A stretch of DNA of 64,000 nucleotides from Candidatus Spechtbacteria bacterium (GTDB lineage Bacteria; Patescibacteriota; Minisyncoccia; Spechtbacterales; JACPHP01): positions 18,833-82,832 of the forward strand of contig JACPHP010000015.1 of assembly GCA_016188605.1 (NCBI GenBank). Direction: 5' to 3'. How positions within the stretch are numbered: position 1 is the stretch's first letter; each line of letters starts with the position of its first letter. Shown here one piece after another: positions 8,183 through 57,893 of the stretch. Position numbers and translations under genes: made by a program. The notes beneath the pieces were generated by a model. The model saw only the letters and a program-made list of their open reading frames with translations. It searched no databases and was not told where the DNA came from.

Positions 8183-8324
8183 ATTTACGATTTAAGAGAT
8201 AAGATTTAAGAATTATTGTTTTTAGTTTTGTAATTCTTGTTTTAATTTTCAATCAATTGACAATAACTAAATTTTCTCCGCCTGAGACGCCTGCCCGCCT
8301 CTGGCGGGGATCAGCCTTAGCGTA

Positions 8325-16256: not shown

Positions 16257-16262
16257 ATTAAA

Positions 16263-17864
16263 TTAATTTCCGTTTTTAAAATGAAAAATTATTTCTGAAT
16301 ATGGATTTCTATCTCGTTCTGTACGATTCAATACGGGGCGCTTAAACTGATTCACGATCTTCATTCCTGATTTTTCAGCAATTGCAGGATAGAGATTATA
16401 TTTATCATTCGCAACAAGAAATGCATCAAAATCGTCAGTTAAAAATTTTCTACAATTAAGCAAAACTTTTGAGATTCCATCGACATACGATGCGCGTGCT
16501 TCTGCGCCCTGTCCTTTATAAAGAGGTCCTATTTCTAAACCATCATTACGCTCAAAGCCAAATAGATCGTATGCATAGGCATGCTGTTCGTGATAATCTA
16601 TCTGACCTACATACGGTGGTGAAGTAAAGATACCTTGTATTTTTTGTTTTTGTAAAACTTCATAACACTGCTTATTTCGTTTCCTAACCTCTTTAAAAAT
16701 ATCAACTGTCCGCGAATCGGCAGGAATAACCGAGTAATGAGCGCCAGTTTTCAATCCGGAAAATATTTTTAGTCGATAAACTGTATCAGTCGCATAATAA
16801 TCAAACCATGACTTGATAGAAAAAAGAGGCTTACATATTTTCTTATGCTTCCAGCAATAATAAGTAGTCAGTTGTGGTTCTTTGAGTGTCGCTAGGTCTG
16901 AATGAGTAGTGGCGCGACACGATCTAATAGTACGGCTTAAAATTACTGCTAAAGCTTTTTTGTTTTTGATATCCTTAATCTTTTTTACTTGCTCAAAGGC
17001 GAAGTCGATTTCTTTTCTAACATTTTTTATATACCACTTATCCAAGAAAGTCTTATCTTCCAATTGTTTTAATTCAATTCCATATTTTTTTACAAGATTC
17101 TTATAAATGCTTAAAAACTCCATTTCTTTTTCTGTGGCATATTTCTTTTCGTCATTGATTTGCCCACGCTGAACTTTATATTTAAAGTCTGGGCTTGGAA
17201 AATAAGAGTTATTAAACTCCGCCATAGATTCTAACAGCTCATTTTCAAATGCAATCATCTTACCATCTACCTCGTAACCCGTCATGGCTTGCTTAATTTT
17301 TTTTACCTCATTTTCAAGAGAGGTAATATCATAATCAAGTAACTTTACATCCGTCATCATGCAGTTGAAATGAGAAATATCGATGCCAATTGAATGCATG
17401 CCCATTTCAGTTGCTTGTACAAGTGTTGTGCCAGAGCCGGAAAACGGGTCCAAAATAATATCACCTGACTTGAAATACGCGCTTGTTTTAAAATCGTCGG
17501 TGTGGCTATCAATAAAATACTCTACTAATTGCGGAATAAACTTGCCCTTGTAGGGATGAAGCCTGTGGATATGTTTGGTCGTATCTTTCTCACGTAAATT
17601 GTCAAAAGATAATGCCCAATTTAAATCATTGCCAAGCTGCTTTTTCCAATTTATCTCTCTCTGCCCTTGATACGAGCCATAGTAATTTTTAAGATCACTA
17701 ACATCAACAAAAATAGAGTTACCGCCATTGTGCTTTTTCACTTTCCCGTACTGCACCAAATACGAGATATTCGATTCACTAACATCACGCTTGAGAAAAT
17801 CACTGGCCCACTGGCTAGCTTCTTTAATGGTTAGTAAATTTTTAGTTTGTTGTAAGATATTCAT
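16263..17864 (-). CDS. DNA amino-methyltransferase (N4-cytosine or N6-adenine), alpha-like motif order
   Basis: HPYKGKF...DPFSGSGTT (motifs X and I) near aa 100-150, and TSPPY (motif IV) near aa 415. SPPY favours m4C. Confidence 0.75.
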   Translation of the reverse strand: MNILQQTKNLLTIKEASQWASDFLKRDVSESNISYLVQYGKVKKHNGGNSIFVDVSDLKNYYGSYQGQREINWKKQLGNDLNWALSFDNLREKDTTKHIHRLHPYKGKFIPQLVEYFIDSHTDDFKTSAYFKSGDIILDPFSGSGTTLVQATEMGMHSIGIDISHFNCMMTDVKLLDYDITSLENEVKKIKQAMTGYEVDGKMIAFENELLESMAEFNNSYFPSPDFKYKVQRGQINDEKKYATEKEMEFLSIYKNLVKKYGIELKQLEDKTFLDKWYIKNVRKEIDFAFEQVKKIKDIKNKKALAVILSRTIRSCRATTHSDLATLKEPQLTTYYCWKHKKICKPLFSIKSWFDYYATDTVYRLKIFSGLKTGAHYSVIPADSRTVDIFKEVRKRNKQCYEVLQKQKIQGIFTSPPYVGQIDYHEQHAYAYDLFGFERNDGLEIGPLYKGQGAEARASYVDGISKVLLNCRKFLTDDFDAFLVANDKYNLYPAIAEKSGMKIVNQFKRPVLNRTERDRNPYSEIIFHFKNGN

Positions 17865-38844: not shown

Positions 38845-39720
38845 TTTTCCCCCTATTTCTAGGAGCGCAGACTATATCTTCATCCTCTCTAATTTTAATT
38901 AGAGTAGGAGTTGGCGTATTACCCATATGTCAGCGTATTCTTCCTTGTCAGCCTCTGCATGAATTACAAATAAATGTAATTCAACGCTTAGGCTGAGTGG
39001 AATACTTGCAGAACATATAAGTCGTTATGTTCGATTAATCTCAAACATAATCAGTCGTTACGGGGTTAAATCTAGAATTTTATACAATTCGCTTTTTGTT
39101 TTCTTCCTCTTAGTAACGTAATTTTCTCTTTGGATTACTAAGATAAAGTCAACAAGTTCTGCTAATTGCTTTTTTGTTAGCTGATTAAATTTTGTAGAGG
39201 CTAGAATTTCGCATGCTTTAAGTAATGCGGAAGCTTGAAGTTCCTTGAAACGAATATAAGGCAATAAATTTTTAAGAATATCTCTTATTTGCTTATAACC
39301 ATTTATCCGAAGCTCGGTCATCCCATCATTTCTTTTGGAAATATAACCGATTCTTAGAATTTCTTGTATCCAATACAAAGTTTTTTCATGTCTGGTGTCT
39401 TGATAAAAACAAATGACTGGCATAAATCGAATTCCGATTGCGCCATCCTTACGCTTTTTTATTTGAAGCATAAGACTTCCGTCTCCATCAAGGAAACCAG
39501 ATATGTACGCTAACTCAATTTTAGATCGACTTCCCACGGTATTATCTTATCACATTCTGGTCCTCAAGCAAATTCCGACATATCTAAGGACCGTGTGATA
39601 TGTTTTCTCATTCGAACCAAAATAATAATTAAGATTTCACCGTTATTAGCCAAATTGTCATCGCAAATTACTTCGCGAAGTAGCAGGGCCTTAAAGGCCT
39701 ACTAGGAGAGACCCCCCTCA
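38845..39720 (-). mobile_element. Group I intron (I1) in the 23S sarcin-ricin-loop region, carrying a LAGLIDADG ORF
   Basis: Exon breaks after ...CTCCTAGTA and resumes ...TGACGAGAGGACC. Conserved group I S-element GATGAAGATATAGTC at 38880-38866. Boundaries approximate. Confidence 0.6.
39058..39537 (-). CDS. LAGLIDADG homing endonuclease (single-motif)
   Basis: YISGFLDGDGSL motif. 159 aa, inside intron I1. Confidence 0.8.
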   Translation of the reverse strand: MGSRSKIELAYISGFLDGDGSLMLQIKKRKDGAIGIRFMPVICFYQDTRHEKTLYWIQEILRIGYISKRNDGMTELRINGYKQIRDILKNLLPYIRFKELQASALLKACEILASTKFNQLTKKQLAELVDFILVIQRENYVTKRKKTKSELYKILDLTP

Positions 39721-39861
39721 AAACTCGACGCCTGCAACAGATAGAGACCAACCTGTCTCACGACGGTTTGAACCCAGCTCGCGTACCGCTTTAATTGGCG
39801 AACAGCCAAACCCTTGGGAGCTTCTCCACCCCCAGGATGCGACGAGCCGACATCGCTGTCG

Positions 39862-40285
39862 AATTTTTTTGTGATCCATACTTTCATATGGCTTAGACTA
39901 TATCTTCATCTCGTCTCGGATACCAGTGTTAAATAACACATCATATCTCAATTTTTTTGACGAGAGTCGGCGTGTTGCCTTGCACTAAATGGCAAAGCCT
40001 CCCCTTTCGGGTCAGTCGTTACGGGGTTACAACCGGTGCCAATGCACCGGAAATCCCAAATCCCAATTTTCAATTTCCAATCAAATCCCAATTACTTAAA
40101 TCCCAAAACGTTTTGGTCATTAAATCATTTAGTCATTGATTGGTCATTGGAGTTTGGTCATTGGTCATTCCAGCACTTTGTGCTGGTCGAACTTCCCACG
40201 GTGTTGCCGGGCGACATGTCTCTATCATGTCACTGACGGGTTCTCCGTTATAAGCCGAATTTGTTGGTAGAGCATTGCTGCTCTA
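39862..40285 (-). mobile_element. ORF-less group I intron (I2) at the ~L2500 site of 23S
   Basis: Exon GTTTGGCACCT | intron | CGATGTCGGCTC. S-element GATGAAGATATAGTC at 39907-39893. Interior contains tcccaaa/ggtcattg simple repeats. Confidence 0.55.
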
Positions 40286-40419
40286 GCACCCCGATGTTTC
40301 AAGGTGCCAAACCGGGCCGTCGATATGGACTCGCGGGCCCGATTAGCCTGTTATCCCCAGGGTAACTTTTGTCTGATGATCTTCTCCTTTTCTATGAAAA
40401 AGAGTCGGTTCACTAAGTT

Positions 40420-40545
40420 CTGCTTTCGCAACTTGCCAATGCTCCGCATTGGCACACTGATATACACAGATACGAACACGGATATACACCGATTTTATCT
40501 GTGTTAATCCGTTTTCTTATCCACGTTAATCCGTGTGTCAGTGCG
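40420..40545 (-). repeat. IVS-like insertion, family A copy 1 (in 23S, near E. coli ~2375)
   Basis: ccaatgctccgcattggcacactgatatacacagatacgaacacggatatacaccgattttatctgtgttaatccgttttcttatccacgttaatccgtgtgtcagtgcgaagcactgacatc. Identical to 44207-44332. Confidence 0.7.
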
Positions 40546-40693
40546 AAGCACTGACATCTTATACTCCCGCTTGATTTTACTCTCGAGGTTTCTAAGAGCG
40601 CGGCTTACTTGCCTTGCAGTAAAGCCAGTTTGTGCCTTTACGCGACCACTCCGATTTCCATCCGGAGTTAACTGACCTTAATAAACGCCTCCG

Positions 40694-41344
40694 CTACAAT
40701 TTAGGCAATGTGTTCCCTAGCATTCCTAGCTTATACCGCATTGATGGCAAAATATATGGATCTATCAATTCTACAAATTTTTCAACCGTAGAACTGTTTA
40801 TATACAATTGCCAAAGGTTTCTCTGCGGCCGCAAATGTGTTTGAACACCAAATTTATTTTCCAATATCTTAATTAGTATAAGATTTTCTGCTTTGGAAAA
40901 ACTTTGCGTATTCAATATCAGCGCGCGATGATGCTTTGATTTTATTGAGCCATCATCCATAAACCAAACTGCTAATACTAATGGCGTGAGCCAACGTTCG
41001 ATCTGTCTCGGTAAAACTTTATGCTTATCTTTATAAAATTGTTGGGCATAAAATCTAAACGCTCCATGACTGATCGTTGAAAACCAATGTTCACGATATA
41101 TCCTATCAAATACAACATGTTGTTTTTCTTGAGGCGGGGTTAATACCCATTCTTTGAATTTTTCATATAACCAAAGAGTGTATTTTTCCTGCCAATATGC
41201 ATGTTCAATCTTCAAACGATAGGTACGTTCGTGATTTTGGGTTTCAAGATGTCCATCACCAAGTAGTACACCAATGAGAATCTCTTTCTGCCCCTCCGAT
41301 AACCGAAGCGTTTGTTTATACGCCTCAATCTTCTTTGATCTCAT
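40694..41344 (-). CDS. LAGLIDADG homing endonuclease (two-motif)
   Basis: LIGVLLGDGHL and LAVWFMDDGS motifs. 216 aa. Confidence 0.8.
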   Translation of the reverse strand: MRSKKIEAYKQTLRLSEGQKEILIGVLLGDGHLETQNHERTYRLKIEHAYWQEKYTLWLYEKFKEWVLTPPQEKQHVVFDRIYREHWFSTISHGAFRFYAQQFYKDKHKVLPRQIERWLTPLVLAVWFMDDGSIKSKHHRALILNTQSFSKAENLILIKILENKFGVQTHLRPQRNLWQLYINSSTVEKFVELIDPYILPSMRYKLGMLGNTLPKL

Positions 41345-41626
41345 AAATGTAGGTGATCCTTACGGATCCTTATGGTCGCCCATAAGTTCAGACTATATCA
41401 CCCTCATTACTCCATAAAGTAATGAGTTTCAGCGTGTAGTCGTTGAGGGGAATGCAATCTTCAAAAATTATGCATTCTTCCCTGCTGATAAGCCGCATTA
41501 CGTGATTTTCACCCTTTCGACTAGGTACACGTACATACTGCATCCATTTAAGGAACGGTTTTCCCAGCATATAGCTGATTTTGCAATGCAATCTTACGAC
41601 TGCATGGCCCCTGTGGCTGTAGCAAG
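40706..41626 (-). mobile_element. Group I intron (I3) near 23S ~L2240, carrying a double-motif LAGLIDADG ORF in its 3' part
   Basis: Exon ...GGGGCGCTAGCCTCAAGAGT | intron | AGCGGAGG.... S-element GTGATATAGTCTGAAC at 41410-41396. The ORF stop TAG overlaps the 3' junction. Confidence 0.55.
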
Positions 41627-41949
41627 CCACTCTTGAGGCTAGCGCCCCACTAAAACTGCCTACCATCCACTGTTCCCTGTGTTTCGCGCAAGGTTAGTTT
41701 TTACATTTTAAAAGATGGGTGTTGCATTGACGGCTCCATCTCGCCCGAAAGCGAAACTTCAAAGCCTACCCACTACGCTACGCAGTCAAAATATAAAAAC
41801 AATGGAAAGCTGCAGTAAAGCTCCTGGGGTCTTTTCGTCTTGTTGCAGGACAACGGCATCTTTACCGTTACTGCATTTTCACCTAGCTCTTCGTTGAGAC
41901 AGTTGCCCAGTCATTACACCTTTCGTGCGGGACAGAAGTTACCTGCCAC

Positions 41950-42994
41950 AATTATGTTACTACCCCAAATACAAATTGAGGACGGAAAGAGCGCTTCGGC
42001 TCCTTCTCTCTATGTCGCCATAGAGTTCAGACTATATCACATTCTCTGGACGAAATCGTACAGAGAGCTTTGGCATGTAGTCGTTGAGGGTTCGTTGCAA
42101 TTTATCTAATTTTTTTCTTTGCGTTATATGTCGTAAAGGATACTGATGAAGAAATATATTTGCAAAAGCTATAATCGTACTTTTTGCATTTGTTTCCCAA
42201 TGACGCAATCCATCCTTTCGCTTTCTCGTATTCCCAAAACCCGTAAAAGCTTTGAGAAGAGAGATAATCTTTTCATCTTTCATTGCGACTGCTATATAAG
42301 GCTCAAGACGATCGTTGCTTCTTTTCCAGCCGAATGATCCTTCGCCATCAATCACTCCAGCTAAAAAATATCCTACCGCATCACGAGAACTTTCCAATAA
42401 AGAAAAACTCTTTTTAATGCGTCCTTCTTCCTTTACTCTCCTTAACGCTTTTCTATATACGCCCATCACTATTGTCTTGCGGCGATGCTCTGCATGACCT
42501 TTATGTTGGTCAAGATATGAAACCGCAGCGCGCATAATTCTAATTCGTTCATTTCCCAAATCGCCACAAATTAGTGGGTACGTGGCAAGAAATGATAAAA
42601 TTATCTTTACTTTTCTTTTACCTCGAAAAGAAAGATTTAGAGCTCCTTTTACTTTAGAAATAACTCCATCATCCTCTCCAACAATTCTATTTATATCTTC
42701 AAGTAATACTCTATCAGAATTAGTTACGGTAATATCTGGCATATAGTAATGCCCAACAGGATGCTTGTTCCGAAACTTAATTACAGAACAAGACATTTCT
42801 GCAGCAAAAAATCCAGAATAATAGTGATGCGAAACTTGCAACGTTTCCTGCTGATTGTCTGACGGCCAAAAATTGACCACACCCGCAGCATTTTTACTCA
42901 TTATATATATTATACACTGAGTAGCTTAGGTTCTCCAGATGTTCCAGCATATAGCCAAATTTTCCAATAAGAGTCACCTCTTATGGTCCCCTGA
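41950..42994 (-). mobile_element. Group I intron (I4) at 23S ~L1931 (after GCGAAATTCC), carrying a LAGLIDADG ORF
   Basis: Exon ...GGTCCTAAGGTAGCGAAATTCC | intron | TTGTGGCAGGTAACTTCTGTCCCGCACGAA. S-element GTGATATAGTCTGAAC at 42044-42031. Confidence 0.6.
42032..42901 (-). CDS. LAGLIDADG homing endonuclease (289 aa, degenerate first motif)
   Basis: YFLAGVIDGEGSF motif, and an upstream YYSGFFAAEMSCS degenerate copy. Confidence 0.75.
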   Translation of the reverse strand: MSKNAAGVVNFWPSDNQQETLQVSHHYYSGFFAAEMSCSVIKFRNKHPVGHYYMPDITVTNSDRVLLEDINRIVGEDDGVISKVKGALNLSFRGKRKVKIILSFLATYPLICGDLGNERIRIMRAAVSYLDQHKGHAEHRRKTIVMGVYRKALRRVKEEGRIKKSFSLLESSRDAVGYFLAGVIDGEGSFGWKRSNDRLEPYIAVAMKDEKIISLLKAFTGFGNTRKRKDGLRHWETNAKSTIIAFANIFLHQYPLRHITQRKKLDKLQRTLNDYMPKLSVRFRPENVI

Positions 42995-47251: not shown

Positions 47252-47292
47252 TGGCAGAGGAGTTGCCGCGCTAGCGCGGCAACTCCTCTGCC
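47252..47292. terminator. Perfect 17-bp-stem hairpin ggcagaggagttgccgcg-cta-gcgcggcaactcctctgcc
   Basis: Direct reading, between the two minus-strand membrane-protein genes. Confidence 0.55.
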
Positions 47293-47301
47293 ATCAATTA
47301 T

Positions 47302-47808: not shown

Positions 47809-48008
47809 GCGTTGAAGAAAGAAAAAAGGCCACCTACAAATAGAAAAACTCGCCTATGGCGAGTTTTTCTATTTGTCTGGTCAAGTCTAATACTCAAAAA
47901 ATTAACTACGCGAGGGAGTATGAAAAATGGTCGTTAAAATAGACAATATTTCGAATACTGCAAGAATCGGACTCCTCTCGCGATAATAAGCGTTAGCATT
48001 TATAGCTT

Positions 48009-48048
48009 TGGTGGACCATGGGAGAATCGAACTCCCATCTCCCGGATG
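48009..48048 (-). pseudogene. Partial duplicate of tRNA-Ala (3' 40 nt, anticodon loop through CCA) plus 12 nt of 3' flank
   Basis: tggtggaccatgggagaatcgaactcccatctcccggatg identical to 48127-48166. Shared flank atttatagcttt. Confidence 0.7.
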
Positions 48049-48126
48049 TCCCAGAAAAACAAGGAGCTTTGCGACTATGTTTTTCGCGATACCGGCAAAA
48101 TAATGAGCGTTAAGTATTTATAGCTT

Positions 48127-48200
48127 TGGTGGACCATGGGAGAATCGAACTCCCATCTCCCGGATGCAAACCGGGTGCTCTGCCACTAAGCTAATGGCCC
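48127..48200 (-). tRNA. tRNA-Ala (anticodon TGC), CCA encoded
   Basis: GGGCCATTAGCTTAGTGGCAGAGCACCCGGTTTGCATCCGGGAGATGGGAGTTCGATTCTCCCATGGTCCACCA. G3:U70 Ala identity pair present. Confidence 0.85.
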
Positions 48201-48278
48201 AAATTTTGAATATTTTGTTAAATATCCTCACTCCGCTGCGCTGCGCTCGGTGTAATCAAAAGAGGTGCACTGGAAAGT

Positions 48279-48313
48279 TTTCAGCCTGAGGCTGATCCGC
48301 CTCTGGCGGAAAA
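48279..48313. repeat. Twin-hairpin G+C-rich repeat (cagcc-tgag-gctg / ccgcc-tct-ggcgg), copy at the tRNA side of the foreign cassette
   Basis: ttcagcctgaggctgatccgcctctggcggaaaa. Inverted near-identical copy at 56162-56196. Related copies at 8281-8315, 56010-56030 and 56390-56415. Confidence 0.65.
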
Positions 48314-48377
48314 CCGCCTCGCTAAAGCGAGAGGCCAAACCTAAACTTTCCGACGAAAGCCAAGCAGTTGGCTTTCG

Positions 48378-48403
48378 TCCTCTGCCACTAAGCTAATGGC
48401 CCA
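48378..48403 (-). pseudogene. Partial duplicate of tRNA-Ala (5' 23 nt)
   Basis: ctctgccactaagctaatggcccaa identical to 48178-48203. Confidence 0.65.
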
Positions 48404-48519
48404 ATGCGCGCAAATTACAAAGCACAGAACACAAAAGCCAAACAAACCACAAAAGCACAAAATTACAAACACGAAACGTTTGGGATTTGTAATTTGTGTT
48501 TTGGAATTTACAAACCTAG

Positions 48520-48591
48520 TGGGCGCGGAAGGAGTCGAACCTTCCGCCTCTTTCTTATCAGGAAAGCGTTCTACCGCTGAACTACGCGCCC
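48520..48591 (-). tRNA. tRNA-Ile (anticodon GAT)
   Basis: GGGCGCGTAGTTCAGCGGTAGAACGCTTTCCTGATAAGAAAGAGGCGGAAGGTTCGACTCCTTCCGCGCCCA. Anticodon loop CTGATAA. Confidence 0.85.
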
Positions 48592-48711
48592 GCAATAAAG
48601 AATACAGAATCTAGAATACCGAATACAGGGACGGAATAAACTGCGATACTATCTTTTTTACAACAATAACCAATATGGCACAAGTACCACATATTTGTCA
48701 GGGTTCTGATA

Positions 48712-48821: not shown

Positions 48822-50645
48822 GTGCTAACATCATTAGTTCCAGTCGAGTCATTACTCGACCCCGTTCTTGCTGCCGCAGTATGGCCTGAAAGTATTACAA
48901 GCAATGAAGTTTTCAAACAACAGCTTGAACGGCGCAGGGAGCTGATAAAACGCCTCGAAGACGTCATTTGCTCTCTGCCCCGGCCAGATATGCCTATCGG
49001 GACAGCTATTGATCTGGGGTATATCACCGAGGAACAAGTTGCGGCACTCTATGAATCTCTAAGCGATTTGCTGCAAGACCCGTACTACAAGCGCATTGTC
49101 TTCTATCTTCCATTTGAATTCTTGCCCAACAGAACGTGGGACCATTTCGGGGAAAAACTCCGACAGGTCGCTAGACTATTTAGGCAGGTATACATGGATG
49201 CTTGGTGGCATCTGCTTCTAGTGCAAGACGTACGCGCCAATTTCGTAGATGGCGACGTGCTTGAAGTAGGGCAGAGAGTCGGCGACTTGCCGCGAGTAGT
49301 GAAGGCGGCTCATCTCATACCCAAGCTCGTTGAAAACGGCTTGCTAGAGATTGAGGACGTCATATCTCTCATGGAAAAAGCCAACGATCAGGTGCTGAAA
49401 GATAGCATTGCCGATGCGCTCCCCGTTCTAGCAGATATGGGATTTATTCCAGATACAGAAGCTGACACAGAATCAGCTGAAGCAACACCAAAGCCGATTA
49501 CGCTTACATATGTTCGCAAAAAATTGGATAAAGCGTTCTCTAGAATAGATACTGAAGATTTCGGCAGTATCACGAAGGGTCGAAAAAATTGGCTTGTACA
49601 AAAAAAGAGGCAAGAAGCCATCGATGCCGCTGGAGAAGATATATGCACAGCAATCGTTCGAGGAGAGCTCTCTAATGAAATAACGGCGAGCTTTCTCGCT
49701 TACGGAGATTCTGCTATGCAGCGAGTGCTTGTCGAAGGAATTAGAGCGGCCATTGAGTCCGTCGCGCTAACTAACGTTAGCAGGGCGCACGCACTGTACG
49801 CTCAGTATAAAGAAACTTTGCTAGCACTTTGGGAGAGCGACGATCCTGATATCGGGGAAGCGCTATCCAAAACTTTCCGCCGGCTCCATTACCTCGGTAT
49901 TGTTGATGACCAACGGCTGTCGGAGTTAGGAATAGTCATTCCACGTCTCGCAGGACCTTTCTCTAAAAATCTTAGGTCAATGGGAAAGGACTTGCGCGAT
50001 ATAGAAACGATGGCCGCGTCTATCAAATGCAACAGCGAGCTGTCGCGGCTCATATACCCGGGGGTTCTCATGTACGGCTCGCGCATCAAGGGATACGGCG
50101 CGCAAAATTCTGATATTGACCTTGCCGTATTTGTGAGGCCGGGAACGCCTTTTGCTGGCAGGTCGGAGCTACAAAAACTACTTGGACAAACTTTCGCGCA
50201 TAATGCGATTCGCGGCCAAGTTGTTGAATTCTGGCTGGAAGAAAAGGGCGAGATACTTCGAATTCGTGACTTCAATAGTTCTGATGTATATCTGGGAGAA
50301 AGCTATTGGACACATGTCCTGTTTGGCGCCGTATGGATGGGCGGCGATGATACAATACGTGAGTTGTATGAAAAACTGCTGACTCCATATATGCGCGATG
50401 ACGGTAATATAATTTTTGGCCGCGGCGCAATAAGCATCTACTTGGAGGAAACAGAACGAGACACTCTACAGTACAGGTTGATGCATAAAGGATATGAACG
50501 ATTCTTCCCGCCATGCGGCGGCATACACACACCCCATTCAGATAGAATTAATGATAGTAGCATGTTCTGGGATTCGGGATACAGGCAACTTGCAACAATG
50601 CTGTTTGTAAGCAGAGTTTTTCTGCCGAATATCCCAGTTGTATAA
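48822..50645 (+). CDS. Large protein with C-terminal pol-beta-type nucleotidyltransferase domain (GS...DID minimal NTase core)
   Basis: 607 aa. LMYGSRIKGYGAQNSDIDLAVFV fits hG[GS]x9-13Dh[DE]h. ~400-aa helical N-terminal region of unknown type. Strong SD, GTG start. Confidence 0.5.
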   Translation: MLTSLVPVESLLDPVLAAAVWPESITSNEVFKQQLERRRELIKRLEDVICSLPRPDMPIGTAIDLGYITEEQVAALYESLSDLLQDPYYKRIVFYLPFEFLPNRTWDHFGEKLRQVARLFRQVYMDAWWHLLLVQDVRANFVDGDVLEVGQRVGDLPRVVKAAHLIPKLVENGLLEIEDVISLMEKANDQVLKDSIADALPVLADMGFIPDTEADTESAEATPKPITLTYVRKKLDKAFSRIDTEDFGSITKGRKNWLVQKKRQEAIDAAGEDICTAIVRGELSNEITASFLAYGDSAMQRVLVEGIRAAIESVALTNVSRAHALYAQYKETLLALWESDDPDIGEALSKTFRRLHYLGIVDDQRLSELGIVIPRLAGPFSKNLRSMGKDLRDIETMAASIKCNSELSRLIYPGVLMYGSRIKGYGAQNSDIDLAVFVRPGTPFAGRSELQKLLGQTFAHNAIRGQVVEFWLEEKGEILRIRDFNSSDVYLGESYWTHVLFGAVWMGGDDTIRELYEKLLTPYMRDDGNIIFGRGAISIYLEETERDTLQYRLMHKGYERFFPPCGGIHTPHSDRINDSSMFWDSGYRQLATMLFVSRVFLPNIPVV

Positions 50646-50648
50646 AAT

Positions 50649-50677
50649 AAAGCCGTTGGTTTCACCAACGGCTTTTG
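50649..50677 (+). terminator. Hairpin aaagccgttggt-ttca-ccaacggcttt followed by tg/taatt
   Basis: Immediately after the 48822-50645 stop, between convergent genes. Confidence 0.55.
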
Positions 50678-50746
50678 TAATTGAAGAAGACCACCCCGCA
50701 ACTGCAAGGTGGCCTCAATTTTATAGATTAAAGAACAAAAAACGAA

Positions 50747-51892
50747 TTAGTTACCGCTACGGCGGTGTTCAGTGCCAATACCGGTAAGCCGTTTACTTGC
50801 AGACGCGCTGGCGCTGAGCTGGTCCCAGGGAATCTGGGAGCCAAGCATGTACAGCGCGCCAAAGTACTGCAATTCTTCATTGCCGGCTGGCTGATCCTTG
50901 ACCCGCATGACCGCCAACACGAATCGAGTCAGGTTGGTCTCCAGCCGCGGATACGTGGCAGAAACCGCTACACCGAGCTGTCGAATCATCTGGTCACGGT
51001 TAGCGGCACCGATCAACGCTGGCAGACGGGTATTTTCCAGGGTTTCTTTGATCTTGGATGCGTCATAAGCGAGCGCAGCCGCGATCTGAACTCCCGTTCC
51101 CGCAAAAACCTTGTTTACAGAATCGGCCATTGCATCTGCTGCGTCACGCAGCCCGCCTGTATCCGGCGGCTGCATCATGCCCGAAGGCATAGCGCCACCA
51201 CCGCCGACCATCGCCATCATGGCATTCATCATAAGAGCAGGATTTGCTGCGCCCTGCACCCACGCATCCTGCCAGGATTTAAGCTGTCCATAGAAAGTCG
51301 TAATCGCTGGCCAAAGATGCTCATCAATGCGCTGAAAAAGCTGCTTCTTTCGCGCTTCAGTCACATACGAACCATCCAAACCGTCGATCGCCGCAAAGAT
51401 CTCAGCATAGCTGCGTCGCGTCATTTCCTTTCGAAGCTTAAAAAACTCCGGATCAACCTGCTCTTCGTTCGTATCCGCAAATCTCTCCATCAAGCCAGCG
51501 AGCACATCCGGGATACTGAAGAGGCCTGCCCGGTATGCCAGTGCCGCCCGAACTGCCGAAATAACAGTGGATTGATCAACCTTGAGGATTCCACCAGTTC
51601 GAAGCGCTTCCAGCCAAGAAGCATCGGTGGGCACTGCGGGAAGCACAGCATCAAAAGAAATGGCTCCCATTGTACTTACTGCGGGCGGCTCAGCCACTGG
51701 CTTAGCCGGTGCAAGCGCTTTGAGCAAATTCCTTGCCGGCAATACTTTCATGCCGACTCCGACGAGGTCTTGCTCTGTCAAACCAGCCAGATCTTCCACG
51801 GTCGTAGCACCAAGATCAGAAATAATCTTCTCAATCACTTCAGATGCAACGCCCATAGACTCAAGTTTGGCAGTTACTTCAGTGACTTCCAT
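50747..51892 (-). CDS. Hypothetical protein with N-terminal tandem helix-hairpin-helix-like segment
   Basis: GVASEVIEKIISDLGATTVEDLAGLTEQDLVGVGMKVLPARNLLKAL. SD AAAGGGG 8 nt upstream of ATG. Confidence 0.4.
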   Translation of the reverse strand: MEVTEVTAKLESMGVASEVIEKIISDLGATTVEDLAGLTEQDLVGVGMKVLPARNLLKALAPAKPVAEPPAVSTMGAISFDAVLPAVPTDASWLEALRTGGILKVDQSTVISAVRAALAYRAGLFSIPDVLAGLMERFADTNEEQVDPEFFKLRKEMTRRSYAEIFAAIDGLDGSYVTEARKKQLFQRIDEHLWPAITTFYGQLKSWQDAWVQGAANPALMMNAMMAMVGGGGAMPSGMMQPPDTGGLRDAADAMADSVNKVFAGTGVQIAAALAYDASKIKETLENTRLPALIGAANRDQMIRQLGVAVSATYPRLETNLTRFVLAVMRVKDQPAGNEELQYFGALYMLGSQIPWDQLSASASASKRLTGIGTEHRRSGN

Positions 51893-51914
51893 TTTCTTTA
51901 CCCCTTTCGCGGTT

Positions 51915-53300
51915 CTACCTGCACATCTTATCCCGCTCGGTACTTCCCAGCGAGATCATTCTAACTTGCACTCCCAGCTTTTCTCCAATTATACTGGCAC
52001 AAAACGAGTAAAGCTCGCTTGGTGTGGCGGGCGATGGAACTTTCAGGGTCGTAATTTCCGGCTTGCAGCGCGAAAGCTGTTTGCCGAGCGATTCCTGATA
52101 TTCCAACTGATTGTTATCCGTTCCCACACGGACTTTGATTGCGCCCGTGGGCGTAAAATATGTAGGATCGTCCGCGCCGAGATAACGGTCGCATATACGC
52201 CACTCTCCGTTAGCCACAATTTGATCGAACCATGTGACGGCCAGGCCATTGAATGCATTTGGGCCGCCGCAAACTTCTATAGCGTAACGAAGTAAAACGA
52301 GATCCAGCGCCCCTACGCGCACTTCTCCCTGATAGCGGTTGCTTTCTTTGTGACTGCCTGGAAGCAATCTTTCTGCCATCTCGGGATTGGCAGTAGGCAT
52401 CGGACCCGCACCGTGGCGAATTGCGTATGCTCGGAACACTCCGAAATTCACAATCTCTCCGTCGTAGCCAGCATCTATAAGCATCGCTTGCGTAAAGCAC
52501 GGCAATGTTCGAATGGCGCTTACGTGCGGATAGAAACCGTGAAAGTGATCGGTGATAACTCCGTGCGAGCTTTCAACTACAACCACACCGTCCCGAGCAA
52601 GGACTTCTCGCTCAAGATATTCATGGCCGACAATCTTAGCTCGCCGCGATACTTCTTCAAACCGTTCGGCAATATAGTCGAGGAAGCCGTCATCATAAAG
52701 AAGAGCAACTTCCTTTTGCATCGCCTCACGGTCGCTAGGCAAGAACTCGCCGCCAATAGTCTCGTTGAGATCGCTGCGTATTTGCTCTCGCACGCAAACA
52801 AGCAAATCTTTCAGATCGGGCCGCGACAAATCGCAGGCTCGAATCGTAAGATCCGGATACTGTTGCAAATAGCGATACGCTTCACCAACGCCTGTGCCAA
52901 TCGTGCCGCGAGGATTATTACCACGTGACATTTCTTTCAGGCGCGACGCAATTCCGTGATAAGGCGTGGCGCACAATGCCATTTCATCTACCGTCAGCAG
53001 ACCAAACGGATTGTGTATGCCGTGCTGATATCGAAGTGCGTCAGACTCATTAAGTAAACCTTCTGGAGAAACGATAAACCGAGCGGAGATATGCGTGTTA
53101 ATGCCTTCGAATGTGCCGCATCCCCACTGGCTGAAAGCAAAGCTCTCGCCACGCGAAGTGCGGACACCGTGGCTTCCCTGCGCGCCTCCGACTTTCACGA
53201 CGGTGTGGGCACGCATCATTGTTGCGATTTTGTGCACCACACCGCCCTTGCCGCCGTCACCAGGACCGAGGTCGGTGACGGTGTAGACTTTCTTGGTCAT
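51915..53300 (-). CDS. Divergent adenylosuccinate-synthetase (PurA)-like enzyme
   Basis: P-loop GPGDGGKGGVVHK (PurA GDEGKGK); VKVGGAQGSHGV (PurA GGHNAGHT); NPRGTIGTGVGEAY (PurA TTGRGIGPAY); ESSHGVITDHFHGFYPHVSA (PurA [21 protein letters not shown]); HGAGPMPT (PurA RVGAGPFPT). The aspartate-binding TTGRRRRTGW loop is replaced by SNRYQGEVRVG. ATG at 53300 with GAGGAAGGTGG SD. Confidence 0.6.
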   Translation of the reverse strand: MTKKVYTVTDLGPGDGGKGGVVHKIATMMRAHTVVKVGGAQGSHGVRTSRGESFAFSQWGCGTFEGINTHISARFIVSPEGLLNESDALRYQHGIHNPFGLLTVDEMALCATPYHGIASRLKEMSRGNNPRGTIGTGVGEAYRYLQQYPDLTIRACDLSRPDLKDLLVCVREQIRSDLNETIGGEFLPSDREAMQKEVALLYDDGFLDYIAERFEEVSRRAKIVGHEYLEREVLARDGVVVVESSHGVITDHFHGFYPHVSAIRTLPCFTQAMLIDAGYDGEIVNFGVFRAYAIRHGAGPMPTANPEMAERLLPGSHKESNRYQGEVRVGALDLVLLRYAIEVCGGPNAFNGLAVTWFDQIVANGEWRICDRYLGADDPTYFTPTGAIKVRVGTDNNQLEYQESLGKQLSRCKPEITTLKVPSPATPSELYSFCASIIGEKLGVQVRMISLGSTERDKMCR

Positions 53301-53310
53301 CGTCGCCACC

Positions 53311-53350
53311 TTCCTCGGTACGCCGAAGTCTCGCTTGGCGAGACTTCGGC
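53311..53350. promoter_or_regulatory. Perfect 17-bp-stem palindrome ggtacgccgaagtctcgc-ttgg-cgagacttcggcgtacc inside the cassette operon, abutting the PurA-like SD
   Basis: Direct reading. No T-run, so more likely a processing/stability or attenuator element than a terminator. Confidence 0.4.
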
Positions 53351-53379
53351 GTACCTTTCAATCTTGATTTGGTAACTGG

Positions 53380-54537
53380 CTAGAGCCAGTTGGGTCCGTC
53401 GTCGGAGTCCTCGTCTTCGGAATCTCCAGAAGTAGCCGAATCAATTTCACTAGGATCGACCGGCCAGAGGTCGGTCTTTTCCCTGAAAAGATCGCCGGCC
53501 TTCGGAAGCTTATCGAAGTTCGGAGAAAGCATCTGAGCTCCGAGAGGAATATGCGCAACTGCGTGAATAATCTGACGCGCACTGAATTCTGAAACATTAT
53601 GCTCCGTAAGAAATTCCAAAGCAGACCCCAGGCTCAGCACGCCCTCCATGAGACCGATGATTATTGCCTTTACACAGTGCAGGTTGTTCGTACCTTCAGG
53701 AAGCATAACGAAATGACCAGCTCCATACAAATCGCTCCACTGATCTGCAACATCCCGACGATTTCCAACCTGCAAAAAGAAGGCATGCGCCTTGGTCTGT
53801 AGATCCCTGACTACTTGCGCGGTGTTAGGCAGTTTTCCATTACTGAAGTCATAACCATTTTCTTTGGCATGCTCCAGTACGTCATCTCCGTAAATCTTCT
53901 TCAGCCAACGCGGATCGATAGTTTCAACGATCGGCTCGTCAGAGATCGTGAAGTGATAGTACTTCAAGCCCCATCGGTTAATCGCTGCATTAGTCAAGTA
54001 CACAGCGCCGAAAAGACCGAACTGTGGATCTTCCTTGCCGTTACCTTGACCCCTACGGCCAGGCACTAAATGAGTCATCTGGGAAGCAATTTTCTCGTCC
54101 ATCTCAAATTGAGTACGACATAGCACAGGCACGTCTTCTCCATCTTCAACGTCGTTGAATATGGCAGTTGCAATCTGAACGTCATATCGACCTAAAATAG
54201 GACGACTGCCGCTGGTCAGCATCTCGTAAGAACTAGGCAAGACATCAAATGCTGTATCTACGTTGCCCCCCATAGAACCGGTTGTATCTAGCAAATCTTC
54301 TTCAGCCATAGGAATACCGCAAGTCAGGACCCATAAGTTACCGCGCTTCTCAAAACGCGGCAGAGATCGACGAATGGGCCCGAGATGAGCAGGTCCTTTC
54401 GGATCCACCAGCGGATCTAGACCTTGTCCTTGGTGCATTCGCTCTTCAGCACCGCTGGTAGCTTTCTTGGTTCCATTAGACGTAGCGCTATAACGAACTC
54501 CGGTATAACCAGACCTTGAAAATGTATTCTTCCCCAT
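53380..54537 (-). CDS. Hypothetical protein with vWA-like (MIDAS DxTxS) segment and acidic C-terminal tail
   Basis: LLDTTGSMGG MIDAS-like motif. C-terminal SGDSEDEDSDDGPNWL. SD AAAGGGG upstream. Confidence 0.4.
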   Translation of the reverse strand: MGKNTFSRSGYTGVRYSATSNGTKKATSGAEERMHQGQGLDPLVDPKGPAHLGPIRRSLPRFEKRGNLWVLTCGIPMAEEDLLDTTGSMGGNVDTAFDVLPSSYEMLTSGSRPILGRYDVQIATAIFNDVEDGEDVPVLCRTQFEMDEKIASQMTHLVPGRRGQGNGKEDPQFGLFGAVYLTNAAINRWGLKYYHFTISDEPIVETIDPRWLKKIYGDDVLEHAKENGYDFSNGKLPNTAQVVRDLQTKAHAFFLQVGNRRDVADQWSDLYGAGHFVMLPEGTNNLHCVKAIIIGLMEGVLSLGSALEFLTEHNVSEFSARQIIHAVAHIPLGAQMLSPNFDKLPKAGDLFREKTDLWPVDPSEIDSATSGDSEDEDSDDGPNWL

Positions 54538-54567
54538 ATTATTCGCCCCTTTCTTTGCTATACACGC

Positions 54568-55380
54568 CTACAATGATTCCGTAGTGAAAGGATGATACTT
54601 GCGCTCCCAGAGCAAATCGATTAGTTCATAGAACGCCAAGTGCGCTCTTTCCGCGTTGCTCTCGCTACCGCGGGCTAGACGCCAAAGATAGTCTGTGTAC
54701 CTACGAAAAGCCTCGTCGCCGTCATTTGGGATTGTACCCGTTTTTAGGTCGCCTCCCAGCGCAACAACAACCGATTGCGCCGCTTGAGAAATCTCTTGGC
54801 GCCTAACCTCTACGGGAACTGTGTCGGTATGTATCTGCGCGAATGACCATTCAAAAATCACCACATAGTGTTCCTTCGGCTCAATCACTATATTCTTCCC
54901 GCTCAACAAGTTAACCGAGATTCCTTCGTTGTGCAAGAACGCAAGCAACTTGAGAAGTTTGCCCATAATCCATGCGCTAGTGCGCAAATCAACCCGCAGG
55001 CGGTCTTTTGCCGTGATGTTAATCAGCGGCACCATATCGCCTACATTCTCTACATTCCTAAACGCAAAAACATTAACTTGACGCCCGCCCTGCTCAGTAC
55101 AGATGAAGCTATCCATAAGCTCGGGGAAACCAAGCTGGTAGTTAAGAGGTTCATCGGGACGAGCGTACTCCACTTCGAGCTCTTCAGCACGGCGCTGCAG
55201 TTCTTTAAGAATATAGGCGGCACGCTGAAGCGCGCCGTTGTCCTTAGTTTCGTTAGCAATCTGCAAAATATATTCGCGCTTTACTCCTTCCTGCGTACAT
55301 AGGTAAAGCCGATATTTGCCGGCTTCTGCTACCTTTTTGCCGACTTGATAAACGTGATGACCATTGCGTATAGTGATCAC
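54568..55380 (-). CDS. Protein-kinase-like fold protein with degenerate catalytic motifs (atypical kinase or pseudokinase)
   Basis: LHNEGISVNLLSGKNIVIEP resembles the HRDLKPENI catalytic loop with D->N. DFG replaced by IFEWSF. Likely GTG start at 55380, preceded by SD GAAAGGAGGG. The track ORF extends to 55536 through the leader. Confidence 0.4.
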   Translation of the reverse strand: MITIRNGHHVYQVGKKVAEAGKYRLYLCTQEGVKREYILQIANETKDNGALQRAAYILKELQRRAEELEVEYARPDEPLNYQLGFPELMDSFICTEQGGRQVNVFAFRNVENVGDMVPLINITAKDRLRVDLRTSAWIMGKLLKLLAFLHNEGISVNLLSGKNIVIEPKEHYVVIFEWSFAQIHTDTVPVEVRRQEISQAAQSVVVALGGDLKTGTIPNDGDEAFRRYTDYLWRLARGSESNAERAHLAFYELIDLLWERKYHPFTTESL

Positions 55381-55391
55381 CGAATTTCCCT

Positions 55392-55668
55392 CCTTTCGTA
55401 CTTGTATTGTAAAGGGACACAATAAACTAGTGCTGATAGTATTGTGTATAACCTGTCTTGTCAAGAGCGGCGTAAGTAACCCCTCACACCCCTCGTGAGT
55501 CATTGCGAGCCCCAAGGGGGCGTGGCCCGCCAGCAACGCCTTAAGCGTAGCTTTGGCGGGCTGGCAATCCCGCTCGTATGTGGTAACGAGATTGCTTCAC
55601 GCTACGCTCGCAATGACGTATAATAAGATTTTGATATAGGGGGTGTGGGGGGTTACCATAGCGACGCA
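55392..55668 (-). promoter_or_regulatory. Structured ~280-nt 5' leader of the cassette operon (candidate cis-regulatory RNA)
   Basis: 12-nt perfect inverted repeat GTCATTGCGAGC ... GCTCGCAATGAC enclosing ~100 nt of nested G+C-rich stems (agcgtagc/gctacgct, cccgcc/ggcggg). No match to a riboswitch class I can name. Confidence 0.35.
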
Positions 55669-56161: not shown

Positions 56162-56196
56162 CTTTTCCGCCAAAGGCGGATCAGCCTCCGGCTGAA
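56162..56196. repeat. Twin-hairpin G+C-rich repeat, inverted copy at the 16S side of the foreign cassette
   Basis: Reverse complement reads ttcagccggaggctgatccgcctttggcggaaaagc. 33/35 match to 48279-48313. Confidence 0.65.
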
Positions 56197-56344: not shown

Positions 56345-56790
56345 ACTTTTCAATACAGCACGGACTATATCTTCATCCTTTTGTTTTGTAACAATCCGCC
56401 TGAGGCGGACAAAAAGGAGCCAACGTGTAGTCTCTACGGGGTTAATGTGTGCTAAATGATGGGGGCGAGAGAACGCGCTCTCTCGCCTTGATGAAAGAAA
56501 TAAAATGCATTCGTGCTCTTTGTGCGGGCGATTTTTCGGCTTGGGTATGCATCCCCGCGCCGATATAACGTGCGCGGCCACGCTCACTAGCACTTTGCGC
56601 ACAAGTTACACAGAACTACTTCATTCTCCCATCATTCAGCACACATAACTTCCCTCGGTATTGCCTTCATTCCTTTATTATACAACGAATGTCACATAAT
56701 AAAGAGGAGGGTTTCACCGATACAGTTAGATTTTGCAATTGCCTTGCGGCAAAAGGTCGCAACGACCAGAATGGTCTGACGACTTCGTCC
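56345..56790 (-). mobile_element. ORF-less group I intron at the 16S ~S1506 site (between GAAGTCGT and AACAAGG)
   Basis: Exon comparison with E. coli 16S. S-element GATGAAGATATAGTCCGTG at 56384-56365. Confidence 0.55.
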
Positions 56791-56869
56791 TTGTCACTGA
56801 TCTTACCGTGGGCCCACTTACGTGAGACTTCGGGTACTACCAGCTTCACTGACGTGACGGGCGGTATCG

Positions 56870-57893
56870 GGATCAATGAGCATATCATCGTCCCACGCCA
56901 CCGGACGAACGGTTTTACCGTATCCTGGCGGCTTCCATCGAATGCTTCTTGCCAAGAAAACGCATCTGTTCACGCAATCGCACCATTTCGCTGAAACCCT
57001 TATCTGTAAGGTGTTCTTTATTGCGATACATAGTGACAATTCTCTTAAACAGTATGTATGTTTTTGCTTTCTTTGCTTGAAGATGATTTGCATCTAAAAA
57101 TGGAAAAAGATACGCTACCAAATCTTTTGAACTGGTAATTTTATACTTCGCGTGGGGGTACCATCCGTACCTCTCATACGAGCAATCATATATTTTCCCA
57201 CAACCAATTGTCACAAGAATTCGTTCGAGGATTTCACGATCATCTGCGCGGAGTTCGATTTCAAACTCGGCACGTATTTCGACAGAGCGAGGATGTTTAT
57301 AATCTCGTTCTTTTCGTTTTCCAACGCTTACCGCAAACGATCCTTCACCATCAATGAATCCTGCGACATATTGAGGAGGCAATTTTTTTCGATGAATTCG
57401 CTCCTTTCCAATCGGACCCTTCAAAGATAAATTTCTTTGGAAAGGTTTACGACTGGTACTACGAGCTCTGCTGACTTCTTGCATGGAATAAATAAAAATT
57501 ACTTTCTATCCTTCTATAATCCCAAGGTTATTTTACCGTGGAAATTAATACCAAACAAGATCTCCCCCGGTCATCTATAAAACAATTTGAAAACATCTCG
57601 ATCACCCTATACGTAGCAATAAATATACACAAAGTGACTTCCCCATGTACTCGAAGGGTGGTCTTATTACTACGCCTCAACAGTGATTCAAGCTATCTTC
57701 TGCTACCCTCGATTGTAGTTGTAACTATAATCGAGACCAAGTTTAACTTGATTTCGCCCTTCATCCTGGGGGTCACCCCTCGCAGGACTGCGATTTTGCT
57801 TCAAAGCGCTTTGTTCGCTTCGGTTGGACTTCTCACCAACAATAAAGTGGAAAGTCACCAACTCGTTCCATAAACTGCAGGGCACCCGAGTAC
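56870..57893 (-). mobile_element. Intron in 16S at ~S1391-1396 (after CTTGTAC) carrying a LAGLIDADG ORF
   Basis: Exon discontinuity CTTGTAC | ~1 kb | ACCGCCCGTCAC. No canonical S-element seen, so intron subclass is uncertain. Confidence 0.5.
56915..57484 (-). CDS. LAGLIDADG homing endonuclease (single-motif)
   Basis: YVAGFIDGEGSF motif. 189 aa. Confidence 0.8.
   Translation of the reverse strand: MQEVSRARSTSRKPFQRNLSLKGPIGKERIHRKKLPPQYVAGFIDGEGSFAVSVGKRKERDYKHPRSVEIRAEFEIELRADDREILERILVTIGCGKIYDCSYERYGWYPHAKYKITSSKDLVAYLFPFLDANHLQAKKAKTYILFKRIVTMYRNKEHLTDKGFSEMVRLREQMRFLGKKHSMEAARIR

Follow-up and report, generated by a model that had tools for sequence, protein, structure and literature searches.

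Why does an intact transfer RNA (tRNA) gene lie between two fragments that look like the ends of another copy of itself? The question is raised by a 64,000-nucleotide (nt) stretch of DNA, hereafter called the window, from a Candidatus Spechtbacteria genome (assembly GCA_016188605.1, contig JACPHP010000015.1, positions 18,833 to 82,832), in which a tRNA-Ala(UGC) gene on the minus strand is preceded by a partial copy of its 5′ end and followed by a partial copy of its 3′ end. The analysis described here indicates that the two fragments are probably the halves of a second tRNA-Ala(UGC) gene, which was split between nt 35 and 36 by a tRNA-carrying cassette inserted in its anticodon.

The inner gene (48127 to 48200, minus strand) features the G3:U70 pair and an encoded CCA end and is presumably functional; ARAGORN assigned it the anticodon tgc, and Rfam matched it with 69 bits. 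The outer 5′ relic (48380 to 48402, minus strand) is an exact copy of tRNA-Ala nt 1 to 23, comprising the 5′ strand of the acceptor stem and the D arm, whereas the outer 3′ relic (48009 to 48048, minus strand) is an exact 40-nt copy reaching from C36, the third anticodon base, to CCA. Both were detected by repeat search, by self-BLAST, and by nhmmer, for the 5′ relic with a tRNA-Ala profile. Repeat search returned a 54-nt direct repeat (47995 to 48048 and 48113 to 48166, 98%) and a 28-nt repeat (48377 to 48404 and 48175 to 48202, 96%), the block at 48377 to 48404 including two bases upstream of the 5′ relic. By self-BLAST, 51 of 51 positions were identical between 47998 to 48048 and 48116 to 48166 (E = 1e-23), i.e., the final 40 nt of the gene with 11 nt of flank behind them, and 25 of 25 between 48380 to 48404 and 48178 to 48202 (E = 4e-8), i.e., two upstream bases plus nt 1 to 23. 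The arrangement reported by the first-pass annotation, an intact tRNA-Ala flanked by 5′ and 3′ partial copies, was thus borne out by repeat search, self-BLAST, ARAGORN, and Rfam. Its coordinates were off by 1 to 2 nt at most; the downstream spacer indeed measures 78 nt, whereas the upstream spacer is 179 nt long rather than 177. The outer halves are mutually compatible (GGGCCAT and ATGGTCC, with G3:U70), which is uninformative as both equal the inner gene, and nt 24 to 28 are missing from the outer copy.

Related loci were gathered with a pattern of the D arm and anticodon loop, which yielded 69 tRNA-Ala(UGC) loci, one per species and all from Patescibacteria. Partial copies were sought by BLAST or nhmmer with the tRNA of each locus itself or a tRNA-Ala profile, and other annotated tRNAs were discounted. 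Both halves surround an intact gene in 9 of the 69 loci (L024, L026, L044, L047, L051, L052, L067, L075, and L076), and at least one relic is present in 15; L015, L037, and L043 carry a 3′ relic alone, and L017, L027, and L068 a 5′ relic alone. A metagenome scan with the spacer pattern added L077 and L079; L078 is nearly identical to L047. The fragments had also been considered as possible parts of a conserved structured spacer present in all relatives. This holds in part, as the nested architecture does recur, in approximately 13 to 22% of related tRNA-Ala loci, but not in all of them, and an empty site exists.

Comparison of the nested loci revealed a common breakpoint. The 3′ half starts at C36 in L044, L047, L051, L067, L075, L076, L077, and L079 as well as in the window, where the junction reads TTTTTCTGGGA/CATCCGGG at 48049/48048 (here and below, the slash marks the junction), at the same base as in these eight other loci. 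The bases preceding C36 are ...CGGGA or ...GRA; L024 fits this scheme too, and the more decayed L026 and L052 read C/AA. Where complete, the 5′ half ends at G35 (GGTTTG/YCCCG in L044, L047, L051, L052, L024, L077, and L079). Since the 5′ half ends at G35 and the 3′ half begins at C36, a single tRNA-Ala(UGC) gene is split exactly at 35/36, with nothing lost or duplicated. The intervening element is 0.2 to 0.6 kilobases (kb) long and lacks a target-site duplication. Its two arms are imperfect inverted repeats of approximately 55 to 65 nt with approximately 70 to 75% identity (5′-TCCCG...CGGGA-3′), which fold into a single long helix with the intact tRNA at the tip; an initial description by three crossing helices between leader and trailer, the spacers upstream and downstream of the inner tRNA, was replaced by one of imperfect inverted-repeat arms with two swapped 9-nt slots. 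We distinguish type A cassettes (L044, L047, L077, and L079) from the shorter type B (L024, L026, L051, L052, L067, and L075). As would be expected of DNA in decay, the outer halves are often mismatched and interrupted by additional GC hairpins, which sit in the anticodon stem, the D loop, or the T loop.

The 78-nt spacer of the window (48049 to 48126, minus strand; ..GCTCATTAT..ATCGCGAAAAACATAGTCGC..GCTCCTTGTTTTTCTGGGA) belongs to this family. An nhmmer profile of the right arm, built from the four type A loci and excluding the window, matched positions 48126 to 48042 with 50.3 bits (E = 9.6e-15); because of this match, which the alignment supports, we regard the spacer as the right arm of a type A cassette. 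It stops exactly before C36 of the outer 3′ half. The inner tRNA of the window is identical in 72 of 74 positions to that of L047, a Niyogibacteria locus whose cassette is of this type as well. By alignment, the trailer's first 26 nt recur behind the outer 3′ half (47983 to 48008, minus strand); when the two final tRNA bases are included, 26 of the 29 columns aligned are matches. As this repetition shows, the outer tRNA carried a 3′ flank of the same kind, which suggests either that it was itself cassette-borne (serial nesting) or that the repeated flank was made by duplication. L052 likewise displays two successive trailers and 3′ halves. A candidate T-arm relic of a third layer (CGCGAGAGGAGTCCGATTCT versus CGGGAGATGGGAGTTCGATTCT; 47963 to 47982, minus strand) was not significant and was rejected, as 90 of 1,000 shuffles scored as high.

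On the other side of the inner gene, the left arm is not recognizable. The upstream spacer starts with a perfect GC-rich hairpin of 12 base pairs (bp) found by repeat search (GACGAAAGCCAA-CTGC-TTGGCTTTCGTC; 48352 to 48379, minus strand), which stands in for the 5′ strand of the anticodon stem of the outer copy; in other loci, GC hairpins occupy comparable spots of the outer halves. A hairpin cluster follows at the place where the left arm of the cassette would be expected (48272 to 48351, minus strand), with a closing stem of GGAAAGTTT and AAACTTTCC around three small hairpins (48316 to 48335, 48297 to 48309, and 48282 to 48294). The last two represent the twin-hairpin repeat noted in the first pass, which is real (CCGCC-AGA-GGCGG at 48297 to 48309 and CAGCC-TCA-GGCTG at 48282 to 48294). 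A GGTTTG within the cluster (48336 to 48341) is possibly a leftover of nt 30 to 35 of the anticodon region. The remainder of the spacer, the leader (48201 to 48271, minus strand), is not recognizably homologous to the left arm of related cassettes: a left-arm profile gave no match on the minus strand between 48201 and 48380, and no TCCCG following G35 was found there. A likeness of the leader to a type A left arm seen by eye was dropped, as the profile search gave no support. Pairing of leader and trailer is restricted to weak GU-rich matches in the window, compared with helices of 9 to 15 bp in other loci.

Self-BLAST revealed an inverted copy of the twin hairpin at 56163 to 56196 (strand not assigned) with 94% identity over 34 nt, in which the loops alone differ, and because of this copy the spacer hairpins are assigned to a dispersed intergenic repeat family. 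In the twin-hairpin pair, the stems are compensated and the loops variable, and short GC hairpins of the form CCGCCNNNGGCGG occur six times in the window (at 8295, 37877, 48297, 56024, 56167, and 56396) versus 0.02 expected. The window copy is an old, decayed, and immobile member of the cassette family without an open reading frame (ORF), in which the right arm is well preserved, whereas the left arm and nt 24 to 28 of the outer gene have been replaced by GC hairpin repeats. That the spacers are remnants of small integrated elements, as proposed in the first pass, accordingly holds for the 78-nt spacer with its right-arm profile match, while in the upstream spacer no left arm was detected.

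In seven loci (L024, L047, L051, L075, L076, L077, and L079), two of them from metagenomes, the outer acceptor strands pair with each other, keep G3:U70, and differ from the inner tRNA. With the insert removed in silico, ARAGORN called tRNA-Ala(tgc) from the outer halves of L077, L051, L076, and L081, whereas those of L052, L044, and the window failed. A comparison of occupied and empty sites among relatives, which had been recommended at the outset, was run on L051 and L018. These loci are orthologous, with flanks aligning at approximately 80% on both sides; in L018 they abut one uninterrupted tRNA-Ala, in L051 the outer halves, and the latter contains approximately 250 extra nt inside the gene. 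For this family member, the comparison demonstrates that DNA was inserted into a resident gene. A second candidate pair (L037 versus L019 and L070) did not give a clean comparison and was not used. The inner tRNA and trailer of L051 and the related L075 share 98% identity over 104 nt while a neighboring gene is approximately 80% identical and the outer halves differ, the acceptor stem of the L075 outer gene being that of the empty-site gene in L018. In addition, the orthologous outer tRNAs of L051, L075, and L018 differ by compensatory changes in the acceptor stem (GGGCCCG/CGGGTCC versus GGGCCGT/ACGGTCC). Together with the inner identity of 98%, these changes are compatible with horizontal spread of the cassette; at the same time, they alone among the observations might indicate that the outer tRNA is under selection.

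Some relatives carry a small nuclease gene. In L076, an ORF for a GIY-YIG protein (PF01541) of 81 to 82 amino acids (aa) lies in the left arm, within the first hairpin; in L017, such an ORF is located in the left arm as well, between the 5′ relic and the intact tRNA-Ala. L013 and L035 carry a GIY-YIG ORF directly upstream of tRNA-Ala, and the L013 orthologue L010 has no such ORF. Proteins homologous to that of L076 are also associated with other tRNAs. In L081, the ORF lies upstream of an intact tRNA-Ile and behind a tRNA-Ile 5′ relic, followed by a nested tRNA-Ala, and in L082 to L084 upstream of an intact tRNA-Glu with 5′ and 3′ relics. Specifically, at L082 1460 to 1950, and also in L083 and L084, tRNA-Glu(UUC) follows the GIY-YIG ORF and a fragment of its own nt ~20 to 38, and an 18-nt copy of the tRNA-Glu 3′ end is found approximately 110 nt downstream, i.e., the same nesting logic at another tRNA. 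The junctions of the GIY-YIG loci range from nt 11 to nt 38. No GIY-YIG ORF was found in the window by tblastn with the ORFs of L017 and L076.

Our preferred explanation is that an insertion of approximately 330 bp, with an intact tRNA-Ala as cargo and belonging to a family of tRNA-carrying cassettes of Patescibacteria, would have split the resident gene of the window between nt 35 and 36. The cassette tRNA would take over the function of the disrupted gene, so that the insertion would be tolerated and the outer halves could decay; the window copy presumably arose in the same way as the related cassettes. Spread may occur by homing-like repair of double-strand breaks, with the conserved tRNA halves as homology arms and the break made by the small GIY-YIG nuclease, whose activity is predicted, in cis or in trans; alternatively, the cassette may spread by repair after DNA uptake. 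The invading ends could pair either with the relics or with the inner gene, and the choice of partner would decide between a full nest and a 5′ relic followed by ORF and gene; both of these predicted products were seen among the loci. Renewed cutting of the inner gene would lead to serial nesting.

This explanation is built on direct observations, namely the anatomy, the right-arm homology, the recurrence in different lineages, the difference between outer and inner genes elsewhere, and the occupied and empty pair. Several points weigh against it. For the window locus itself, neither an empty nor an occupied site was seen, and no close Spechtbacteria relative was available. The left arm is unrecognizable and the 5′ relic ends at nt 23 instead of nt 35, so the 5′ fragment could have arisen separately. 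Local duplication would likewise produce fragments that are 100% identical to the inner gene and a repeat of the trailer's first 26 nt behind the 3′ fragment, as seen here. The window is devoid of a nuclease ORF, and the mechanism of mobility is inferred. Moreover, the inner tRNA, having the same anticodon region, should be a target too, and junctions ranging from nt 11 to nt 38 fit imprecise repair better than classical site-specific homing.

Among the other explanations, a purely local origin, in which slippage or unequal crossing-over twice duplicated part of the tRNA-Ala region in tandem, independently and with no mobile cassette, would account for the perfect identity of the fragments to the intact gene and for the spacer start repeated behind the 3′ fragment (26 of 29 columns), as a 118-nt tandem duplication predicts. 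Against this, 51 nt stayed identical although the remaining part of the duplicated flank has diverged. The breakpoint coincides to the base with the 35/36 cassette junction of other lineages, and the spacer is homologous to the right arm of their cassettes. The local duplications that the first-pass annotation had offered as an option are contradicted in the seven other loci by outer halves that differ in sequence from the inner gene, and insertion is evident from the empty orthologous site. We therefore consider local events unlikely.

A further possibility is that the nest is functional, with the outer halves as exons, the insertion as a new bacterial tRNA intron at 35/36 that is not of group I, and two tRNAs made from one precursor. 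The long helix formed by the arms would extend the outer anticodon stem and expose the tRNA at its tip, the ORF occupies a hairpin loop, a position also known from intron-encoded endonucleases, a valid tRNA can be rebuilt from the outer halves of L077, L051, L076, and L081, and the outer tRNAs of L051 and L075 differ by compensatory acceptor changes. In addition, 35/36 is the site of self-splicing group I introns in Patescibacteria (PMC13011429). The inserts, however, match no ribozyme model. The group I model RF00028 gave no hit in the window between 47850 and 48650 at E values up to 5 or in eight related loci at E values up to 0.1, although it does detect an intron in the 23S ribosomal RNA (rRNA) gene of the same window (39875 to 40311), and Rfam searches of the inserts at permissive E values returned neither a ribozyme nor another family. 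Contrary to group I rules, the 5′ exon ends in G and the intron in A (...GGTTTG/TCCCG and ...CGGGA/CATCC). A bulge-helix-bulge motif was not found by inspection, as the ends pair up to the junctions and leave a 4×3 internal loop, whereas a 4-bp helix flanked by 3-nt bulges is absent. RNAalifold predicts pairs in the type A arms that are nearly all invariant, so that covariation has no power there and lends no support. Many outer halves are damaged by GC hairpins in stems, mismatches, or missing segments, those of L052, L044, and the window failing in ARAGORN, and the inner gene makes the outer one dispensable. We thus give the functional nest a slim chance. Even for the well-preserved members (L077, L051, L076, and L081), it is improbable that the insert is spliced from an outer pre-tRNA and its tip matured into a second tRNA-Ala, and for the window copy, which lacks nt 24 to 28 and the left arm, a spliced outer tRNA is very unlikely. 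If outer genes were spliced, this would imply a new bacterial RNA-processing pathway with an as yet unknown activity by which Patescibacteria cut and join tRNAs and by which, possibly, their many non-intron rRNA insertions are removed too.

Footprints of integrases, the mechanism envisaged in the first pass, would require that elements recombined separately with the 3′ and 5′ parts of tRNA-Ala, left att duplications, and afterwards lost nearly all of their sequence. Islands that target tRNA genes classically leave a partial 3′ copy downstream of the intact gene, and the window has one. Precedent for the other side is an archaeal element with a 5′ fragment and a recombinase (PMC3293823). The islands, however, would be just 78 and 179 nt long and without genes, the 78-nt spacer is a conserved element arm rather than random island remains, and the fragments of the relatives are halves of one gene with a common 35/36 breakpoint, jointly unlike the inner gene. 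The search for an integrase gene advised in the first pass yielded none: with Pfam, PHROGs, and NCBIfam, neither an integrase nor a recombinase was found in the 64 kb among the ORFs scanned, which comprised most of those of at least 180 aa and only a few shorter ones near the rRNA genes. The idea of mobile DNA targeting the tRNA thus stands in spirit, whereas the integrase and att mechanism is highly improbable, as no integrase was found among the scanned ORFs and the fragments are better read as halves of one gene split at 35/36. A mis-join induced by repeats is a negligible prospect: the window does come from a metagenome-assembled genome, and short-read contigs of the same strain break at repeats, yet more than 10 independent assemblies, produced in different studies, share this architecture while differing in sequence, and the fragments have unique, nonidentical flanks.

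Searches for further relatives of the window locus were negative. The exact 40-mer of the window tRNA 3′ half had no match in the genome or metagenome contig collections, so these contain no close relative. The nearest PAP2 homologue with genomic context (58% identity, L007) is not syntenic with the window, and a spurious 84-aa ORF spanning the 5′ junction had no match in independent contigs. The trailer pattern gave no matches in viral contigs; matches of two arm motifs there (more than 120 and 7) are attributed to chance, as the patterns are short and none lies in a tRNA context.

Other tRNA loci of the survey showed related arrangements. In L009 (oriented 7273 to 7463), a tRNA-Ala(CGC) is flanked on both sides by halves of a further Ala-like tRNA. 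In L029 (oriented 7280 to 7430), a tRNA-Ser(CGA) is enclosed by a 12-bp stem after TTTG/TCCCGCA in a degenerate tRNA-like context; this insert resembles a cassette (TCCCG...CGGA), and its outer context is not identifiable as a tRNA. Furthermore, a palindrome of approximately 20 nt (CTGCCTGCNGGCNGGCAGGC) is present at TCC/GG in both strands of the outer anticodon stem of L051 (oriented 5985 to 6004 and 6178 to 6197). Palindromes of this kind at similar sites in L024, L027, L044, L015, and L067 make up a second insert family of tRNA relics, with very small palindromic members. L081 contains an identical hairpin module of approximately 110 nt (TCCCGATAATCTC...AAAATCGGGA) at 1357 to 1465 and 2016 to 2126, located in the D loop (GTG/GTAGAA) of two different relics, one being a 5′ fragment of tRNA-Ile and the other the 5′ half of the outer tRNA-Ala, which suggests a small element targeting the tRNA D-loop sequence.

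The nest is part of a small tRNA unit, the first gene of which is an intact tRNA-Ile(GAU) outside the nest (48519 to 48591, minus strand; ARAGORN gat, Rfam 70.1 bits). A promoter-like site, identified by consensus match only, lies 5′ of tRNA-Ile (48672 to 48701, minus strand; CTGACA-18-TGnCATATT). Between the unit and the PAP2 gene, repeat search found a perfect 19-bp hairpin with a 3-nt loop (47836 to 47876, strand not assigned), which is the likely terminator of the unit. Just after PAP2, there is a perfect palindrome of 21 + 21 nt (47260 to 47301), and every Logan contig assembled from short reads of the same strain (SRR121134xx) stops at its center; look-ups with the MscS-like gene gave just Logan contigs of approximately 1.5 kb, broken at the palindrome. 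The rRNA genes do not form a compact operon and are dispersed over 38414 to 59454 in the order 16S, protein genes over approximately 8 kb (one of them on the opposite strand), tRNA-Ile and tRNA-Ala with their own promoter-like site, PAP2, the MscS-like gene, 23S, and 5S. The 3′-terminal sequence of the 16S gene (GCCCGTCAC...GAAGTCGT) is located near 56780 to 56890, approximately 1 kb past the end of the Rfam 16S match, and the insertion parting the two (region 56780 to 57844) contains a LAGLIDADG ORF (56915 to 57484). The 23S gene (39058 to 42901) is broken by at least three inserts with LAGLIDADG ORFs (42032 to 42901, 40694 to 41344, and 39058 to 39537), in addition to the group I intron mentioned above. 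Between 16S and tRNA-Ile, a block of higher GC content (0.51; 48822 to 55536) without an integrase may be a foreign island. It encodes a PurA/PurZ-like adenylosuccinate synthetase homologue (51915 to 53309), the PHROG match of which is a phage aminooxy-adenylosuccinate synthetase, as well as a kinase-like protein (54568 to 55536), a 607-aa protein with a Pol-beta/MntA-like nucleotidyltransferase domain, and two ORFs without a family. In a low-GC stretch at 15468 to 17864, a TdeIII-type restriction endonuclease and an adjacent N6/N4 DNA methylase form a restriction-modification pair.

The window copy is a fossil, yet it exposes a widespread and apparently active family of elements. Such a family would point to a previously undescribed strategy by which selfish DNA settles in an essential single-copy gene of a very small genome, bringing a spare copy along and splitting the old gene. 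It would explain stray tRNA halves in Patescibacteria, which can mislead tRNA annotation and tRNA-based prediction of islands, and it would link the very abundant, uncharacterized GIY-YIG proteins of approximately 80 aa to tRNA genes. It would also add a non-intron occupant to 35/36, a known intron hot spot of the phylum, and the relics would record horizontal replacement of tRNA alleles between lineages. A full-text literature search turned up no account of bacterial tRNA genes that lie within their own split copies, nor of tRNA-associated mini GIY-YIG cassettes.

The cassettes share features with several known systems. Like islands and prophages that target tRNA genes by tyrosine integrases, they use a tRNA gene as target, keep its function, and leave a partial tRNA scar; unlike these, they have no integrase, carry a whole tRNA gene instead of an attP fragment, cut the target at 35/36 so that both halves stay, and are only 0.2 to 0.6 kb long with inverted-repeat arms. 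A mitochondrial GIY-YIG element of Allomyces atp6 (Paquin et al., 1994, PNAS) is reported to replace the end of a gene and to leave the old end as a pseudogene. Its nuclease ORF likewise travels with a substitute gene segment and the displaced segment persists as a downstream relic, but it reportedly concerns the 3′ end of a protein gene only, whereas the cassettes supply a complete tRNA and both old ends remain. Phage T4 SegB (PMC2330249) is similarly a GIY-YIG gene among tRNA genes, and it spreads by break repair with co-conversion of flanking tRNA. SegB has approximately 220 aa including a DNA-binding domain and lies between genes of the phage, in contrast to the ORF of 81 to 82 aa described here, which is limited to the catalytic domain and sits within a disrupted bacterial tRNA gene, alongside a replacement tRNA. 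The group I introns at 35/36 in tRNA-Asn as well as tRNA-Asp from Patescibacteria, which are self-splicing, of subgroup IA, mostly ORF-less, and have U at the 5′ splice site (PMC13011429), occur in the same phylum at the same unusual anticodon position, and most copies of the cassette lack an ORF as well; the cassette differs in having no group I core, following G35, ending in A, and holding a tRNA gene. Finally, archaea possess functional split and multi-intron tRNAs processed by the bulge-helix-bulge splicing endonuclease, and in Caldiarchaeum a tRNA-Thr fragment is associated with a recombinase element (PMC3293823). These disrupted tRNAs resemble the nests in that halves are parted by foreign DNA, hairpin-like inserts occur in the D, anticodon, and T loops, and a mobile origin has been proposed, while the nests differ by the absence of a bulge-helix-bulge motif, by their bacterial host, and by the intact copy that they hold inside.

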